From: Candidatus Thorarchaeota archaeon
GTDB taxonomy: Archaea; Asgardarchaeota; Heimdallarchaeia; Hodarchaeales; Hodarchaeaceae
Reading direction: 5' to 3'
DNA: 32,000 nt
Assembly: GCA_048882505.1 (NCBI GenBank)
Contig: JBHLRO010000001.1
Span: forward strand, 60,001 to 92,000
Position numbers and translations under genes: made by a program. Below are positions 22,424 to 31,114 of this stretch, one piece after another. Below the pieces are notes generated by a model. It was given only the letters and a program-made list of their open reading frames with translations. It was not told the origin of the DNA and did not search any database. How positions within the stretch are numbered: position 1 is the stretch's first letter; every line of letters starts with the position of its first letter.

Positions 22424-23452
22424 GTGGAAAGGTGTTCAATGACAGATTCGCTTATTAAACATCGTTTACTGGAGTATTATAAAAAGAATTTTCCCCAGAT
22501 AGATAATATTACGATTCCTAGCTTTGAACGGCTCGCTGACGGGTGGGAAACCGAGATATACGCCTTCAGCCTTTTGGAAAATATCCACCCAAAGCAGGAC
22601 TTGATATTACGGATTTATCCTGGCAAGGATGCACAGGCAAAATCTACGCGAGAATTCTCAGGCATGGTGCACCTAAAAACTCTAGGTTACCCAGTACCGG
22701 AGGTCTATCACTATGGGGAGCGTCAGAACTCACCATTTGACGGTAAACCATTCTGTATTATGGAAAGAATCTTTGGTAGGCTTCTCGGAGATTTATCCGA
22801 TCCTTCCGTTGTTGATCTCTTTGCATCACTGCTGGTGCGGCTACATGAACTAAAATGGCGAAAATTGATTCCTTATGTAAAGCATTACTCACCTGTGGGA
22901 TTTCTCGAGGAGACATTAGATAAATATCGTGCTACAATAATGGCTTCGGGTTTTTTGGGTTTTCTAGAGCCTATTTCATGGATCCAAGAGGAAGCTACGA
23001 ATCGGGATCTCAAGATATCTCTAGCGATTACCCATAACGATTTCCACCCCTATAACATCATTCTAGATATGCATAACAGACCATATGTCATTGATTGGAG
23101 TGGTTTTGCCATATCGGATTATCGTATGGACCTTGCATGGGCTCTCATGCTTATAGAGGCCTACAGAACTAAAGAACGTCGCCTCCATTTTAAAAATAGA
23201 TACGCTGAGATAAGTATGAAGAATCTAGAGCATTTAGATCTTTTCGATGTAATGGCTTGCACACGACGCTTATTTAACATTGTGGTTTCAATTGAACAGG
23301 GGCCTGATAAGCTTGGGATGCGTCCCGAAGCACTTACCGTCATTATAAGAGATTTAGATAAGCATAAACGAGTATATAGGCTCTTTCAAGAACGTACCCG
23401 GTTTTCTATACCAGAAGTGGAGGCCTTGATTTCAAAACTTGAAAAATCTTAA
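22424..23452 (+). CDS. Aminoglycoside-phosphotransferase/choline-kinase-like phosphotransferase
   Basis: Catalytic loop THNDFHPYNII, VIDWS and MDLAW. The start could be GTG 22424 or ATG 22439. Confidence 0.88.
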   Translation: MERCSMTDSLIKHRLLEYYKKNFPQIDNITIPSFERLADGWETEIYAFSLLENIHPKQDLILRIYPGKDAQAKSTREFSGMVHLKTLGYPVPEVYHYGERQNSPFDGKPFCIMERIFGRLLGDLSDPSVVDLFASLLVRLHELKWRKLIPYVKHYSPVGFLEETLDKYRATIMASGFLGFLEPISWIQEEATNRDLKISLAITHNDFHPYNIILDMHNRPYVIDWSGFAISDYRMDLAWALMLIEAYRTKERRLHFKNRYAEISMKNLEHLDLFDVMACTRRLFNIVVSIEQGPDKLGMRPEALTVIIRDLDKHKRVYRLFQERTRFSIPEVEALISKLEKS

Positions 23453-23467
23453 ATCCAAGGCTATTCC

Positions 23468-23475
23468 TTTTTTTT
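23468..23475 (+). terminator. Oligo-T terminator
   Basis: T8 run 15 nt after the stop, between convergent genes. Confidence 0.45.
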
Positions 23476-23491
23476 GACCAAGCTCGATAAT

Positions 23492-24679
23492 TTATACCTT
23501 AGAGTAAAGTAAACCGAGTAAAGCATGAACTGCAGTTCCTTTCCATAGAATGGTTTCATCTACTTCAAATTTTGGATGATGCGTTGGATAAATGGTACCT
23601 TTTTCTTCATTATATATCCCTAAGGCCATAAAGCATCCTTTAATTCTTTCTAGATAGAAAGCGAAATCTTCAGCGCCCATTGTAGGTTGCATGGATTCAA
23701 CTGATTCAAATCCATCGAGAACAACCTTTAACTTGGCCATAGCTTCGGGATGGTTTATAACGGGGGGATAAGGGATCATATCCCCTTCATTGAATACTAC
23801 TTCCCCCTCGCAACGCCATGCTGTACAATATCCCTCCACGATCTGGGGGAGTCGGGCCAGTATATGATTTCGTATTTCTGGATCCATTGTGCGAAAGGTG
23901 CCTTTCATAACAGCAAATGGAGGAATGACATTATGGGCCTTACTTGCAGAGATATCAGGAGTAGATATGACTACGGGCTGAAATGGCGTAATCTCCCTTG
24001 TACAAACTTTCTGTAGAGCATTATAGATATCTGCAAGCACAGCTGTCGGATCGACAGTTAAGTGGGGAGAAGCAGCATGACCTCCTCGTCCTTTAACGGT
24101 TACTCGAAAAAAATCGGCACTGGCCATCATCCGAGGAATTGTCGCAATTGTCCCACTGGGAAGGGTTCCCCAAACATGCATCCCAAAAATGACATCTACA
24201 TCATTTATATGCCCCTCAGCAACAATTCGTTTACCCCCGCCACCACCTTCCTCGGCTGGTTGAAAAATTAATTTTACGGTACCTATAACCTCTTTCACGT
24301 GTTTTTGCAAAAGACGGGCGGCACCAAGAAGCATAGCCATATGCGCATCATGGCCACAGGCATGCATCTTTCCGGGAATGGTAGAATGGTATTCTAAGTC
24401 CGTATTCTCTTCGGTGACATTCAAAGCATCTATATCTGCCCTCAGGGCTATCGTTGGACCTGAAACTTCTCCGCTAATGGTAGCCATTACCCCTGTTTTT
24501 GCCACACTGATCGGATTATAGCCCATCTTTGACAATTCGGTGGAAATTCTCCCAGCGGTCTTGAATTCCTCGTACATAGTTTCTGGGTAACGGTGGAAGG
24601 TTCGACGTAAATTTATAATATAGGGCTCCAGTTCCTGAGCATCTTTCACAATTTGGGCTCGTAATCGCTCTAAGCTCAT
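23492..24679 (-). CDS. M20D amidohydrolase/carboxypeptidase
   Basis: LRADIDAL, MHACGHDAH, FQPAEEG, GMHV, GAEDF and HHPKF. Confidence 0.95.
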   Translation of the reverse strand: MSLERLRAQIVKDAQELEPYIINLRRTFHRYPETMYEEFKTAGRISTELSKMGYNPISVAKTGVMATISGEVSGPTIALRADIDALNVTEENTDLEYHSTIPGKMHACGHDAHMAMLLGAARLLQKHVKEVIGTVKLIFQPAEEGGGGGKRIVAEGHINDVDVIFGMHVWGTLPSGTIATIPRMMASADFFRVTVKGRGGHAASPHLTVDPTAVLADIYNALQKVCTREITPFQPVVISTPDISASKAHNVIPPFAVMKGTFRTMDPEIRNHILARLPQIVEGYCTAWRCEGEVVFNEGDMIPYPPVINHPEAMAKLKVVLDGFESVESMQPTMGAEDFAFYLERIKGCFMALGIYNEEKGTIYPTHHPKFEVDETILWKGTAVHALLGLLYSKV

Positions 24680-25267
24680 GTTGTTCAGCCTTTTTTAATT
24701 GGTTTTTCAGCGGAATTGCTTTAATCTATGGTGGTAAATCAGAATGCAATATCATGAAATAGACGAATGGTTAGATTTAATATTGTATTATGTCATCCAA
24801 GGGATTCCAAACTGCGATATATTAGTTTTCAAATTTACATTTCCAAATTACTGAAAGGAATACTTCCGTTTCGGAGTTTTAGAAACCCCTAATATGAGAT
24901 CATGGATTCTCTGGAAATTTAGGAGCCACATCCCAGCAGTTTATCGAAATCACTAGTAATGCCCAGCGTCAGACCCCTTCGTGTAATTGTCCAATTAAAG
25001 GTTTTTTGAGTTTGAAGTGATTTACATGCCTGGGTTTTGGATTTTCATGAACCTTTGTTGAAACGCAATACACTTCTCATCCCCTATTCAGTATAAGTGG
25101 AACAGCCTTGAGCTGACTACCGCTCGGCTTTTCCAAAACAATAGCTATAAAAAACATCGATTCTTCAATTTAGCTATCAAGCTCTCTGATCTTTACAGCC
25201 ACCCAGAAGTACCTAAAAGATTCTGAATCAGATAAATAACCTCCCATCACCCCAAAAGGAGAATTTA

Positions 25268-25642
25268 ATGCAAACCCTCAGCCGTGGTCTATGTCCCTTT
25301 CGCATCCAGTTACCAGACTTTCAATCTGGGTGTGTTTTACAGTTAAAGAAAGAGGCAACATGTTACACTCAAGATCTCAGACCTTTGATGCACCAAAATA
25401 ATCAATATACATGTCCACTGTTAGGCGTCCGGATAGACGAAAAACTTTATGCTAAAATTGAAATTTTAGTTGATCAGGTCTTGGCCATTCAAACTGACGA
25501 TGAAATATGTTCGAATTGCTGGCCCATGCTTTCTGGAATAGCTCGAATGAAGAATTCGGAAACTTTACAAGGATTAGAGCTAGAACAGTTGGCAGAGGAA
25601 GTTACAGATAGACTTCAAGATATTGTTATGGATTTCTCCTGA
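25268..25642 (+). CDS. Hypothetical four-Cys protein (paralog 1)
   Basis: AAGGAG RBS, and clear alignment to the downstream ORF (CPFR, GC.LQ, CY.Q..RPL, CP.L, WP.LSG). Confidence 0.75.
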   Translation: MQTLSRGLCPFRIQLPDFQSGCVLQLKKEATCYTQDLRPLMHQNNQYTCPLLGVRIDEKLYAKIEILVDQVLAIQTDDEICSNCWPMLSGIARMKNSETLQGLELEQLAEEVTDRLQDIVMDFS

Positions 25643-25846
25643 TCTGCTGAAAAACTTCCACCCCGTAATAAACGAAATATTAAACTTGACTTTTTAAGCC
25701 CAAAGGTATTACGGTTAATGGAGTATCGTATGGATTTTACAGGACGATAGCTAAAAAAAATTTCATTTCATGTTTCTAACCGCCCATCAACGAGCTTATT
25801 TAGGATTAATACATCCTAGACGTTCATAGACTGGTGGAAATTTTTC

Positions 25847-26233
25847 TTGTCGATAATAGGTTTTGGATTTTGTCCGTTTCGCGTTGAATACGAATCTTTC
25901 AGGGCTGGGTGCAAGCTCCAGATAAAAACCCTGTGTTATTCTCAACATGTGCGGCCTTTACTTCAAATGGACACCAATCCGGGTTACTATTGTCCGGTAC
26001 TCCATTTTACCCTCTCCGAAGGCACCTATGAGGAGATCCAATCCCTTATTCAACAGATCCTTAAAATTCAGGATGAAGAAAACATAGCTCTTAATATCTG
26101 GCCATTGTTAAGTGGCGTTGCGAATCCAAAGCACAAATCGACCACTCCAAAAGGAAAAGGGATGCAACAACTGAGCAAGAAAGTGAGGGATGAACTTGAA
26201 CAGATCATTTACGACATAAGCGAAATTCGTTAA
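25847..26233 (+). CDS. Hypothetical four-Cys protein (paralog 2)
   Basis: TTG start after GGTGG. It is collinear with paralog 1 over the full length. Confidence 0.75.
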   Translation: MSIIGFGFCPFRVEYESFRAGCKLQIKTLCYSQHVRPLLQMDTNPGYYCPVLHFTLSEGTYEEIQSLIQQILKIQDEENIALNIWPLLSGVANPKHKSTTPKGKGMQQLSKKVRDELEQIIYDISEIR

Positions 26234-26308
26234 TCACAAAGGAGATAAAAATCTTAGTTGTTTAGCCTGGAGAAGTTTACAACTTGAATAGAGGTAGAAT
26301 ATCCAGCT

Positions 26309-27436
26309 ATGGAACTCGTCAATGGAAAAAAATCTACTAAGGCGCTTCATGATTCAATCTTCCTCCTAGGCGATGAAGATTCTCCTCAAGTCATTCAGAC
26401 AAGTGTTTTTCCTCCCACTCGTTACCAGGGAAGTAAATATAAGCTAATTAAGTGGTTTCTTTCGATCTTCAAAAAATATAAATTTAAAACAGTTCTAGAC
26501 GCTTTTGGAGGGACGGGAGTCGTTAGTCATATGTTTAAACGTATGGAAAAAGAGGTAACATACAATGACCTCTTGGTAAGCAATTATTTTATTGGAAAAG
26601 CACTGATAGAGAATAGTGGAATCATTACTAATGTTTCGGACGTTGTTCATATCTTTAAGAGGCATAAAGCTCAGAAATATAAGACAATAATTCAAGATAA
26701 CTTCCGCGATATCTATTATACAGACGAAGAAAACAAATTTCTTGATATTTGTGTTCAAAACATAATAAAGTCAAGGGATGAATACAAGAAAGCCCTATAT
26801 TTCTTTTCTCTTTTTCAAGCCTGTCTACAGAAGCGCCCTTTCAATTTATTTCATAGAAAAAACTTATATCTAAGGCAAAGAAACGTTAAGAGGAGTTTTG
26901 GAAACAAAAAAACGTGGGACACCCCGTTTGAAGAACTCTTTATGAAAGCGTTAAAACAGGCGAATAAGGCTATTTTTGACAATAATCAAAATAATAAAGC
27001 TTTAAATTACCCCATTCATGATCTTTTGCTTCCAGAGGAGGGTTTTGATTTGATCTATCTTGATCCACCCTATATATCCCATACAGGTGTTGGTGTAAAT
27101 TATCGGGATTTTTATCATTTCTTAGAAGGGATTTGCAATTACCATCACTGGTTAGAAATGATTGATTTCCAATCCAAACATAGACGGCTAAAAGTTCATA
27201 AGAATGGCTGGATCAACAAAAATCAGGTAGAAAGCGAATTCGAATCGGTGGTGGCAAAATTTCAAGATTCGATCATTTCTATTTCCTATCGAGATCCAGG
27301 AATTCCTCCAATCCCGACTATCCAAGATATAGTTTCTACCTACAAGAACGTTGTTGATACTTACACTAAAGGTTACAGTTACGCTCTAACTTCTCGCAAA
27401 AATCGGGGACGGGAAATCCTTATTATTGGTAGGTAA
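26309..27436 (+). CDS. D12-class (Dam/FokI-like, alpha group) N6-adenine DNA methyltransferase
   Basis: Motif X RYQGSK, motif I LDAFGGTG, YND, motif IV YLDPPY, ISY and a C-terminal EILII. Confidence 0.9.
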   Translation: MELVNGKKSTKALHDSIFLLGDEDSPQVIQTSVFPPTRYQGSKYKLIKWFLSIFKKYKFKTVLDAFGGTGVVSHMFKRMEKEVTYNDLLVSNYFIGKALIENSGIITNVSDVVHIFKRHKAQKYKTIIQDNFRDIYYTDEENKFLDICVQNIIKSRDEYKKALYFFSLFQACLQKRPFNLFHRKNLYLRQRNVKRSFGNKKTWDTPFEELFMKALKQANKAIFDNNQNNKALNYPIHDLLLPEEGFDLIYLDPPYISHTGVGVNYRDFYHFLEGICNYHHWLEMIDFQSKHRRLKVHKNGWINKNQVESEFESVVAKFQDSIISISYRDPGIPPIPTIQDIVSTYKNVVDTYTKGYSYALTSRKNRGREILIIGR

Positions 27437-27497
27437 ATTATCAAGGAGTAGAAACCTATTTGAAATTAAGGGCCAAGATTCCTTAGGGGTCAAAACA

Positions 27498-28985
27498 ATG
27501 GGATTGAAAGATTTCTATCACCTTCTTGATAACGGGGACATGAAAGAAGCGTTGGTTGTTATGGAATCCTTGGAGGGTGATGAAAGGCTCGAGGCAGAAC
27601 TCACCAAGGCTACGCTTGACCTAAACTTCTACGGAGGAGTACATGAGATTTCTTCTCTTGTGAAAGATCTAGTTAAAAAAACTCATCATAACTCACTTCT
27701 CCAAAGTTTCGCTCGAGCATGTCTTGCTTTTATTTTCATATGGGAAGCCAAATATCCAGAAGCGCTCGCCGAATTGGATGAAGCAGCCAGGTTAATAAAT
27801 GAGAATCCCACGAAAAGCAGATACAGTGTTCCAGTCATATTTGTATCATTCATAAAAGCCTTTTATTTGGTTGAGGTGGGAAAACATGATGAAGCAATAG
27901 CTATTTACTCCCACGTCATAGAAACCGCTTTGGCCCAACAATTCCCTTTGAAAATTTTCGGCATGGCAGCGTTCCACAATCTTGGGTCAATCTATGAACA
28001 CAAAGGGGAATGTAAGAGAGCCATAGAAAATTATCTTAAGTGTATGAAGATTGTCGAAGAACTAGGAAACAAAATCTTACTTGCCTACCCACTTACGAAA
28101 TTGGGGAATCTATACCATCTTCAAGGTAACTTAACTCTTGCGACCGACATGTTAGAGGAAGGATTGGAAAATTCTCGAACTTTTAAAGATAGTCGGGCTG
28201 CTGCATGGGCTTTGGAGGGATTGGGTGCCGTATATCACTCCAAGGGGGATTTTAGTTTGGCCCTCCGAATGTACGAAGATGCCCTAGAGACAACAAAAAC
28301 TGCCGAACTAAAGGCATCGGATCTTACTTCGACATTATATAGGCTCACTGTCCTCTATCTAGATATGGATAATCCTGATATGGCTAAAGAGTATTTGAGG
28401 CAACTGCAGAATCATGCTACCAGTGATACAAGTCTGCATACTAAAACAATGAGTTTATTCGCTGAAGGATTGATTCTAAAGAGTAGTAAACGATTCAAGG
28501 ATAAAGCGCGTGCACAGGACCTATTTCAATCAATATTTGAAGATAAGAAAAAGACACAAAAAATCAGATTCCTTGCTATGCTCCATTTCTGTGACCTCTT
28601 GCTCCAACAGTCTGAAGATAACATGATGTTAGACAAAGCCCGGAAAATAGCGGGAGAGTTGTATGAATTTGCCCGTTCCTCAAAATTTATACCAGACCAA
28701 ATCAATGCTCTTATTCTGCAGGCAAAATTCGCGTTGATAGAAGGAGATGTAAATCGGGCTTTGGATTTGCTTGAACAAGCGTATAATTTCGCAAACCGAA
28801 AGGAACTCACCAATTTGAAGCATGCCGTTGAGGAGGAGCAAAATTCGTTGAGAAGAGATCTTAACAGATGGCAAAACCTATTGGACATTAATGCTTCATT
28901 GAGAGAGCGGATCAAACTATCTGAAATAGAGGAATATCTTGAGACGGCAATCAAGATCCGTGATCGAACATTAGAAATAACCTGA
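27498..28985 (+). CDS. Tetratricopeptide-repeat protein
   Basis: Repeated TPR units (AFHNLGSIYEHKGECKRAIENY; PLTKLGNLYHLQGNLTLATDML; ALEGLGAVYHSKGDFSLALRMY) and a helical C-terminus. ATG 27498 is preferred over the overlapping TTG at 27426. Confidence 0.85.
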   Translation: MGLKDFYHLLDNGDMKEALVVMESLEGDERLEAELTKATLDLNFYGGVHEISSLVKDLVKKTHHNSLLQSFARACLAFIFIWEAKYPEALAELDEAARLINENPTKSRYSVPVIFVSFIKAFYLVEVGKHDEAIAIYSHVIETALAQQFPLKIFGMAAFHNLGSIYEHKGECKRAIENYLKCMKIVEELGNKILLAYPLTKLGNLYHLQGNLTLATDMLEEGLENSRTFKDSRAAAWALEGLGAVYHSKGDFSLALRMYEDALETTKTAELKASDLTSTLYRLTVLYLDMDNPDMAKEYLRQLQNHATSDTSLHTKTMSLFAEGLILKSSKRFKDKARAQDLFQSIFEDKKKTQKIRFLAMLHFCDLLLQQSEDNMMLDKARKIAGELYEFARSSKFIPDQINALILQAKFALIEGDVNRALDLLEQAYNFANRKELTNLKHAVEEEQNSLRRDLNRWQNLLDINASLRERIKLSEIEEYLETAIKIRDRTLEIT

Positions 28986-29018
28986 AAGCGAGCATCAGAA
29001 GAGAATCATATTGAGCGC

Positions 29019-29702
29019 TTATTCATAAATAAAACGCTTTATTTCAGTCCATAGGTTTTCCTCTTTCCCCTGCAGACTATGATCCGCTGGTAACTTCTTC
29101 ATTATTACATTTGAATTATCATTGGCAAAATTCTCACTCCATTTGCAAGGAACTACCAGATCCTGGCTACCATGTAGGATTAACGTGGGCACGTTGGATT
29201 CAGTAAATATTGGTGTTGGAGGCGGGAAAGCGATCATATCCTGACAAAAGCTGTACATAAGAGGTACTAGCTTCTTATAGCGATAATGTTCTACCAAGAC
29301 GAATCCTTGTTTTTTCCAGTCCGATAAGGAAACGTTGAGAGCAGATTGAATAAAATCCAGGGAAAATTGCAGGGCTGGTGCCATCAGGATTAGGCGATCA
29401 ACGAATTCAGGATGCATTTGGGCAAACCAAGCGGCCAAGAAACCTCCAAAACTCGAGCCTATCAAAATGCATCTTTCTTGGCGGTAATTAGCTAGAATCT
29501 TGGGAATATCAGTTTCAATTCTTTTAAGGAGTCTAGACAGCCGCAGCTCCGAGAAGGCTGTTTCTGATGAAATGTAATCATATACGAAGAACTTTGCGAT
29601 CTGATCTTCCCCACGGATTCTTTCACGAAAAAAGGATGCTTTTCTGGAATTAGGGCCCGAGGCGAATCCATATAAATAGATCAGGAATCTTGGTTTATCC
29701 AT
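29019..29702 (-). CDS. YqiA/YcfP-like alpha/beta-hydrolase (esterase)
   Basis: GFASGP oxyanion region, nucleophile GSSFGG, HGSQD and DH. Confidence 0.88.
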   Translation of the reverse strand: MDKPRFLIYLYGFASGPNSRKASFFRERIRGEDQIAKFFVYDYISSETAFSELRLSRLLKRIETDIPKILANYRQERCILIGSSFGGFLAAWFAQMHPEFVDRLILMAPALQFSLDFIQSALNVSLSDWKKQGFVLVEHYRYKKLVPLMYSFCQDMIAFPPPTPIFTESNVPTLILHGSQDLVVPCKWSENFANDNSNVIMKKLPADHSLQGKEENLWTEIKRFIYE

Positions 29703-29761
29703 CGATTATAACTCAGTTAATCCGATATTAAAACGAAGTTTATGGAGGAACCTGAGGGCTT

Positions 29762-30805
29762 TCAGGGGACCATGACCACTTTTCCGAATTGTTTTCCTCC
29801 CTCAAGAATCCGCTGGGCATCCTGGGCTTTTGATAATGGTAAAACAGTGTCAATTACTGGTTTTAGGTTTCCCCTCCATACATAATCCAGAACTTCCCGT
29901 AATTCTTGACGACTTGCCATGGTGGATCCAATCAGCTCGAGTTGATTCCAGAATAGCAGGTTGAGATTAGTTATAGCTCTTGGCCCTGTGGTCGCGCCAC
30001 AAGTTACCAGCCGACCACCTTTCCGAAGGGCTCGCATGTTCTTTTGCCAGTTTTCTTGCCCTGATGAGTCAATAACTACATCGACGCCTCGCCTATCGGT
30101 GTGATAATAAATCTCCTTATGATAATCAGGATTATCAACATAATTGATGCCTAGGCTTGCGCCAAGTTCTTTTGCCTTCTTTAATTTTTCATTAGAAGAT
30201 GAAGTGACAAAAACCCGCGCACCAAGCAATTGTGCAATTTGCAGGGCAGCCAAGGCGACTCCGCCGCCTATTCCTGTGATTAAAACATTATCAGCCTTTT
30301 TAACCCGAGCTCTTGTTTTCACCATGCGATACGCAGTCATAAATGTTAAGGGGACAGCAGCGGATTCAGTCATATCTAACGGACTGTTTTTGGGAATTAA
30401 AATCGCGTTTTCCCGTGGAATAGCCAGGTATTCTGCGTATCCCCCTCGAATATGTTCACCAATGACACCATAATTACGACAGAGAGAAACCTCGCCGATT
30501 TGACAAAATCTACATTTCCCACAAGAAATTCCTGGATCAACAACAATCTTGTTTCCAGCTTCGAGATTCTCCTCACGATTTTCACTGCCTATTTCCTCTA
30601 TCTCTCCGCTGATATCGCTGCCAAGAATATGGGGCATTTTAAGGTTCAATCCTGGTATCCCAGCGCGGACAAAGAGATCTAGGTGGTTTAATGCAACCGC
30701 CGCGACCTTTACCAAGATTTGATTAGATTCAATTGTTGGAGTCGGATATTCTGAGAACTCAAGCTTCTCAATAGATCCAAATTCATGTAACAATACTGCT
30801 TTCAT
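29762..30805 (-). CDS. MDR-family NAD(P)H oxidoreductase with a structural Zn site only
   Basis: MKAVLLHEFG start, CGKCRFC...C structural-Zn lobe, GIGGGVA and FGKVVM. The catalytic Cys position reads ALNHLD and the GHE motif reads GSD. Confidence 0.88.
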   Translation of the reverse strand: MKAVLLHEFGSIEKLEFSEYPTPTIESNQILVKVAAVALNHLDLFVRAGIPGLNLKMPHILGSDISGEIEEIGSENREENLEAGNKIVVDPGISCGKCRFCQIGEVSLCRNYGVIGEHIRGGYAEYLAIPRENAILIPKNSPLDMTESAAVPLTFMTAYRMVKTRARVKKADNVLITGIGGGVALAALQIAQLLGARVFVTSSSNEKLKKAKELGASLGINYVDNPDYHKEIYYHTDRRGVDVVIDSSGQENWQKNMRALRKGGRLVTCGATTGPRAITNLNLLFWNQLELIGSTMASRQELREVLDYVWRGNLKPVIDTVLPLSKAQDAQRILEGGKQFGKVVMVP

Positions 30806-31114
30806 GCTTCTAACCCTATAGGACGTAATAATAAAAAAAATCAATATTCTTAGGATCGAAAACATCAAACTGATCCCGTTTTTTGGAGAGTAAAGTCTGT
30901 CCTCATTTATCTTTATTCGCTGGTCGGAAACATTTCGTTTCTTAATATAATCATATTATGCGTATTATTTCATTAATAATTAAACAAACAATTAAAACTG
31001 TTTTAATAGCCATTAAATCACTGAAATCTTTATATGTCAAGAGGAGAGGTGAATAATTGAACCTTTAGAGATGTAGCGATTCAATCTAGTGGATTAGTCC
31101 CTGGAGAATTGATA

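Follow-up and report, generated by a model that had tools for sequence, protein, structure and literature searches.

What kind of protein is encoded by two adjacent archaeal genes whose products resemble each other over their full length, share four cysteines and cannot be placed in any named family? This question is raised by a tandem gene pair in a 32,000-nucleotide stretch of DNA (the window) from a Candidatus Thorarchaeota archaeon of the GTDB order Hodarchaeales (assembly GCA_048882505.1, contig JBHLRO010000001.1, positions 60,001 to 92,000 of the forward strand). Hodarchaeales belong to the archaeal groups that are placed nearest to the eukaryotes; to our knowledge, hardly any of the proteins specific to this lineage have been characterised. 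Lineage-restricted hypothetical families as such are common.

Two paralogous genes and the extent of their family

The first gene (paralogue 1, 25268..25642, + strand) is the 5′ copy of a conserved tandem pair and encodes 124 amino acids from an ATG start codon. The second (paralogue 2, 25847..26233, + strand) is the 3′ copy and encodes 128 amino acids from a TTG, which is its sole possible start. On reading the sequence, a Shine-Dalgarno-like AAGGAG was found at 25256..25261 (+), 6 nt 5′ of the ATG of paralogue 1, and a Shine-Dalgarno-like GGTGG precedes the TTG of paralogue 2 by 9 nt (25833..25837, +). Both the TTG and the upstream GGTGG are identical in the orthologue of paralogue 2 from the sister genome G016. 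The two proteins align over their full length with 40% identity (E 2e-34), which confirms, at these positions, the two end-to-end alignable open reading frames of 124 and 128 amino acids that a sequence-only reading of the window had described. Between species, dN/dS was 0.05-0.22 in nine orthologue pairs, and the two are therefore real, constrained protein-coding genes. That they are real had also been claimed beforehand, and the identity between the paralogues supports it together with these ratios. By this measure, both copies are under strong purifying selection. A search of positions 24000-27000 against Rfam found no RNA family. The pI is 4.6 for paralogue 1 and 6.8 for the window's other copy, and most family members are hydrophilic, with a pI in the acidic to neutral range. 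Neither a signal peptide nor a transmembrane segment was seen when the family sequences were read. The best explanation is that both proteins would be small, soluble and cytoplasmic, as part of an overall reading, set out below, that we regard as evenly balanced.

The breadth of the family was assessed by profile searches. Using a three-sequence profile, members were found in 18 of 21 other congeneric genomes in addition to the window's own genome, whereas 39 genomes of the class that represent other genera gave none. A 43-sequence profile was run against 400 genomes of the phylum, and the 379 Asgard genomes outside the genus gave no credible match, with three marginal partial ones at E 6e-4 to 8e-3. 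When 1.84 billion proteins were searched exhaustively with HMMER, only 23 cluster representatives matched, several of which are fragments and a few of which are long repetitive proteins that are apparently spurious. A word-indexed profile search yielded 68 clusters at 90% identity and nothing in the twilight zone; 67 of these clusters were matched at E 3e-29 or better, the exception being a 74-aa fragment. All named family records are annotated as 'hypothetical protein' and come from MAGs of Candidatus Hodarchaeales, Hodarchaeota or Heimdallarchaeota, a few being labelled Promethearchaeota or Thorarchaeota. A single-protein scan recovered only the sister MAG, in which the copy is 97% identical. 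The sequencing runs that carry the sequence are of DNA from sediment and other metagenomes, with no RNA run listed, and a literature search on the family returned nothing relevant. Family breadth had been suggested as a point to check, and the profile searches restrict the family to one Asgard genus. Judged from its sequences, the family is narrow, sharply bounded and confined to a single genus of Hodarchaeales (Heimdallarchaeia).

Most family-positive genomes carry 2-3 copies. Of the 19 genomes that hold family members, 17 retain the tandem pair, and the remaining two have short contigs or the third paralogue only. In a maximum-likelihood tree, the solitary third paralogues form a clade with 98/95 support. 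The 5′ copies group apart from the 3′ copies with good support, and the deepest splits between these clades are unresolved in the tree. The duplication would be older than most speciation in the genus, and the side-by-side copies probably act together or split one ancestral role. An old duplication of which both copies were kept fits sub-functionalisation or heteromer formation. Likewise, retention of the pair together with purifying selection on both members is compatible with a partnership, without being proof of it. That the two copies work together as partners is plausible, with a chance somewhat below even. Prediction of a complex (A3 and A4 with 2 Zn), which was run without controls, gave ipSAE values of 0.00 and 0.01 and reported no contacts, which speaks neither for nor against a heterodimer.

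Cysteine pattern and predicted fold

Four conserved cysteines with an unusual spacing that avoids CxxC had been proposed from the two window sequences, and this pattern was borne out in 43 sequences (alignment A2). C22, C32 and C49 are invariant in all 43, and C9 is absent only from one N-terminally truncated sequence. Across the family the spacing is C-x12-C-x7/9-C-x16-22-C, so that the last gap is widened to x16-22, and there is no conserved CxxC. The invariant cysteines span 25292..25414 (+) in paralogue 1 (C9, C22, C32 and C49), within the beta-rich N-terminal half, and 25871..25993 (+) in paralogue 2 (C9, C22, C30 and C49), in which the C22-C30 hairpin lacks two residues that most members have. 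A near-invariant proline directly follows both C9 and C49, giving two Cys-Pro dipeptides. Further invariant residues of the 43-sequence alignment include G21, P39, Q75 and G102, and conservation of at least 90% was observed for C9, P10, F11, R12, G27, Y33, R38, L40, P50, D76, N83, W85, P86, L116 and I119. In the N-terminal alignment (A5), to which a fusion protein described below was added and from which one truncated sequence was dropped, all four cysteines as well as R12, G21 and P39 are invariant. The list above also bears out the earlier view that the motifs of the helical half are conserved, with Q75 and G102 among the invariant positions and D76, N83, W85 and P86 at 90% or more; this half carries a conserved polar patch with IQDE and N-x-W-P motifs. 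The extra C-S-N-C of paralogue 1 is indeed present (residues 80-83, 25505..25516, +), but as a general feature it did not hold: it is lineage-specific and occurs only in the window, in G016 and in the metagenomic protein P0003. Extra cysteines in other clades differ, as for example in WPIFCRDSK.

Single cysteines without any CxxC, spaced as in this family, match no known Zn or Fe-S signature. The family nevertheless resembles a zinc ribbon or rubredoxin-like Cys4 domain in its small size, its richness in beta-hairpins and its four invariant cysteines, and its two C-P-x-x turns resemble one half of a C-P-x-C-G zinc knuckle. A zinc ribbon, however, has two CxxC (CPxCG) knuckles, whereas the family carries one cysteine per knuckle and places two cysteines inside strands; no Pfam zinc-ribbon match was found in the 43 members. 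The ArfGAP domain (PF01412) combines a Cys4 zinc finger with an arginine finger in about 120 amino acids and has the pattern CxxC-x16-CxxC. By analogy, the family may be compared with it in size, in the order of a Cys4 region followed by helices, in having an invariant arginine and in the fusion of one member to an Arf GTPase. In contrast to the paired CxxC-x16-CxxC of ArfGAP, the four cysteines of the family are isolated; none of the 43 members matched PF01412 at E up to 1, and no ArfGAP structure was among the Foldseek or VIA matches. With Fe-S proteins (CxxCxxCxxxCP) and the CGGC domain (PF08821) the family has Cys-Pro dipeptides in common, and the third paralogue has genes for CGGC, NifX-like and MinD/Mrp-4Fe-4S proteins as neighbours. 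The cysteine spacing of the ferredoxin and CGGC signatures is, on the other hand, unrelated to that of the family. No Fer4 or CGGC Pfam match was found in the 43 members, and an hhalign comparison of their alignment with the neighbouring CGGC proteins gave a probability of 0.09%, which marks them as unrelated.

An AF2 model of the monomer was computed from the family alignment and reached a pLDDT of 83.4 and a pTM of 0.79. It has six short strands (residues 12-14, 20-26, 29-34, 40-43, 46-49 and 54-57) followed by four helices (58-72, 77-82, 84-93 and 100-123). The protein would thus form a single compact alpha/beta unit, in which the six-stranded N-terminal half with the four cysteines packs on the four-helix C-terminal half. 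When the N-terminal 55 residues were modelled alone, the pLDDT was 56, which is too poor for a fold search. Because these residues alone reach only this value, the beta half would be not an autonomous zinc ribbon but a part packed on the helices. The models therefore suggest that the beta half depends on the helical half and that the protein is one integrated fold.

The statement that the proteins cannot be assigned to a family was upheld by all sequence searches. Neither paralogue had a significant match in Pfam, NCBIfam, PADLOC or PHROGs, a Pfam scan of all 43 members at E up to 1 returned no consistent family (best E 0.013, below the cut-off), and the best E in a sequence profile search of the PDB was 3.3. 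A comparison of the AlphaFold monomer with known structures by Foldseek had been recommended, and the confident model found no fold match: the best E was 0.5 against the PDB with the full AF2 model and 0.12 in the viral database BFVD, and the best TM in the ESM Atlas with the full model was 0.43. VIA-align wide against 48,161 representative chains gave a best Z of 4.1, mostly for the helical half, and a feature search of the ESM Atlas with protein P0001 returned nothing. All of these fold searches stayed at noise level. The ESM Atlas matches include small Zn-domain proteins, namely an IBR_1-type protein (TM 0.58 by target, over 51 residues) as well as A2L and DnaG zinc ribbons. By query, the TM of these Zn-domain matches is 0.29-0.34, and as a pointer to relatedness they may serve as a weak lead. 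The family is accordingly new and specific to its lineage; its fold appears to be unmatched, and its Cys4 pattern is unusual.

Gene neighbourhoods and the putative metal site

Genomic context was examined by all-against-all clustering of open reading frames in 20 fetched loci, with 16 pair loci having flanks. The typical gene order is M20 peptidase, DnaJ-type Zn-finger protein (9 loci), copy 1, copy 2 and hydrolase. In the window, the M20 peptidase gene (23492..24679, −) is the divergent upstream neighbour, as it is in 12 of the 16 pair loci, and a gene for a UPF0227-type alpha/beta hydrolase (29019..29702, −) is the convergent neighbour, present in all 16. The DnaJ-type Zn-finger protein, which is membrane-anchored and encoded between the M20 peptidase and copy 1, is absent from the window according to tblastn. 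Wider neighbours of the pair encode acyl-CoA dehydrogenase, acyl-CoA synthetase (AMP-binding enzyme), HAD, PAP2, ACT and ABC proteins; apart from the DnaJ-type Zn-finger protein there is no metal theme, and the setting is one of general metabolism. The hydrolase gene directly abuts copy 2 in 14 of the 16 pair loci, namely those without an insertion. Only in the window and in its sister G016 (2 of 16) is the pair separated from the hydrolase by two further genes. In the window, these encode a D12-class N6-adenine DNA methyltransferase of 375 aa (26309..27436, +), which begins 75 nt after the end of copy 2, and a TPR protein of 519 aa (27426..28985, +), whose start overlaps the methyltransferase gene by 11 nt. 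The stretch 22424-30868 was examined and yielded no restriction endonuclease gene. Because all genomes are congeneric, synteny is weak as functional evidence.

Two local differences were seen besides. In G016, about 670 bp of the spacer between the M20 peptidase gene and copy 1 (L022:6224-6896) do not align to the window (24850-24860), and the remaining region has 80-84% nucleotide identity. In G003 (L030:8801-11394), two actin-family genes lie between the family copies on the same strand, in the order copy1-actin-actin-copy2 and with gaps of 54-88 nt. The actins have 389 and 456 aa (Pfam Actin E 6.5e-59 and 1.3e-71), and this insertion is absent from the close relatives G001, G018 and G020.

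The solitary third paralogue was found in G003, G018, G020 and G013, where it is located beside or inside metal/Fe-S gene islands. Its neighbours include the gene for a CGGC-domain protein, which overlaps it by 4 nt in L038, and genes for an HTH/MetOD1 regulator, an ArsR-like wHTH protein, radical SAM proteins and a DUF134/HypA-like protein. Two NifX-like proteins and two MinD/Mrp ATPases with ferredoxin (4Fe-4S) inserts are also encoded nearby, as are a ZIP transporter and a CDF transporter that carries a fused NifX-like domain. An independent metagenomic contig has a different gene order: two DUF134, two NifX-like and two MinD/Mrp-Fer4 genes are followed by the third paralogue on the same strand, with a peroxiredoxin gene 3′ of it and a gene for a protein with a DtxR-type Fe-repressor domain in the vicinity.

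Viewed as a unit, a common metal/Fe-S island that hosts the third paralogue was observed at L040:145-8675, L037:3258-10062 and L050:749-10424. Its gene content comprises DUF134, two NifX-like (Nitro_FeMo-Co) proteins, two MinD/Mrp proteins with 4Fe-4S inserts, CGGC, radical SAM, the CDF-NifX-like fusion, a ZIP transporter and ArsR/DtxR-type regulators.

Four invariant cysteines in a cytoplasmic protein usually constitute a metal site. Since the family proteins would be cytoplasmic and have four invariant cysteines, two of which are part of Cys-Pro dipeptides, a metal site is the most economical explanation of their conservation. On this reading, the four cysteines would serve as ligands to structural Zn or to an Fe or Fe-S centre, and we lean towards this assignment of a putative metal site with somewhat better than even confidence. 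As read from the DSSP string of the AF2 model, a regular beta2-beta3 hairpin would put C22 and C32 on opposite faces, which would argue against a simple tetrahedral site in the monomer; the site may for this reason be irregular, be shared between subunits, or not be one tetrahedral centre. Since metal/Fe-S gene islands surround the third paralogue, the family would have a role that touches the handling or sensing of metals or Fe-S. Such a role is the best-supported functional guess and a tentative one, which we hold to be doubtful. The third-paralogue context and the Arf fusion described below are both weak as functional leads, each being single-lineage or within-genus. Overall, the chances seem about equal for and against a description of the genes as an orphan paralogous pair of one Hodarchaeales genus, with a putative Cys4 metal site, paired copies and a metal- or Fe-S-linked role.

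An Arf GTPase fusion and alternative roles

In G005, a single 543-aa open reading frame (L039:634-2265, −) joins a Zn ribbon, a Lon_C-like region, the family domain and an Arf-family GTPase. The family domain of this fusion is without its last helix, and the Arf domain is full (E 2.7e-42). P0011, a separately assembled protein of 315 aa, has the same Lon_C-to-family junction with few substitutions. A profile search with the 43-sequence alignment gave no longer fused forms, a weak result since the 315- and 543-aa fusions described here escaped it as well. By eye, a Lon catalytic Ser motif is not evident in the G005 protein. A gene for an 804-aa TPR protein, similar to the TPR protein beside the window's pair, is located directly upstream of the fusion gene. 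The window's own genome has at least 37 Arf-family loci above the Pfam cut-off; many of these are in open frames of 300-660 aa, suggesting multidomain GTPases. No match to a canonical ArfGAP was found in this genome, and the control genomes likewise gave none.

Alternatively, the family might be a structural-Zn adaptor or regulator domain of Asgard small-GTPase signalling, acting as an effector or in a GAP-like manner via the invariant Arg12 or Arg38, and not a metal-handling protein. This would agree with the position of the family domain between the Zn-ribbon/Lon_C-like region and the GTPase, with the recurrence of the junction in the independent P0011, with the adjoining TPR gene and with the many Arf-like loci that lack a detectable canonical ArfGAP. 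Nevertheless, we consider it unlikely. There is only one fusion lineage, and Asgard Arf-like GTPases sit in long multidomain open reading frames with many partners, so that little weight attaches to one fusion. The annotated neighbours of the pair include no Arf gene, and sequence or fold similarity to ArfGAP was not found. In addition, the similarity between the two TPR proteins is generic, and the ArfGAP search says little since it was also empty in the control genomes. Because the Lon-like/family-domain/Arf fusion hints at such a role, a far-reaching combination can be imagined, in which a new Hodarchaeales metal-binding fold forms a paralogue heteromer that bridges Zn or Fe-S between subunits and acts as a redox- or metal-sensitive, GAP-like (invariant Arg) regulator of Arf-like GTPases; it would be a long shot.

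Instead of ligating metal, the four cysteines could be redox-active thiols, in a thiol/disulfide switch or a small metal-free redox protein. The cysteines are single, lie on separate strands and are not arranged in chelating CxxC knuckles, a peroxiredoxin gene follows one member of the third clade, and a DnaJ-type Zn-finger protein frequently neighbours the pair. On the other hand, the family has no CxxC and no thioredoxin-like motif or fold, and no reductase partner is conserved nearby. Moreover, four cysteines that are all invariant and partly set in Cys-Pro dipeptides are rather what is typical of metal ligands, and a redox-thiol function appears distinctly improbable.

A role as small DNA-binding transcription factors, in which a Zn-finger-like N-terminus would be joined to three C-terminal helices resembling an HTH, is very improbable. 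The helices 58-72, 77-82 and 84-93 are of HTH-like length and the weak VIA matches include a sigma-70 fragment (Z 3.2), but these fold matches are at noise level, no HTH family was found at E up to 1 in the 43 members, and most members, including the window's two copies with the pI values given above, are acidic to neutral. A modification or defence cassette of the pair with the methyltransferase and the TPR protein, four genes on one strand of which the methyltransferase matches PADLOC type II MTase models (6.6e-53), is contradicted by synteny, as the linkage exists in only 2 of 16 pair loci and the family proteins have no significant PADLOC or PHROG match, and its probability is close to negligible.

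We therefore return to the orphan pair with a putative Cys4 metal site. The family is a clean, strongly constrained orphan, and its Cys4 pattern is unlike the textbook Zn and Fe-S signatures. It has so far no tie to any process of broad importance. If the proteins do bind metal, they would represent a new small metal-binding architecture, and if the Arf fusion reflects function, the family would offer a handle on the regulation of small GTPases in Asgard archaea.
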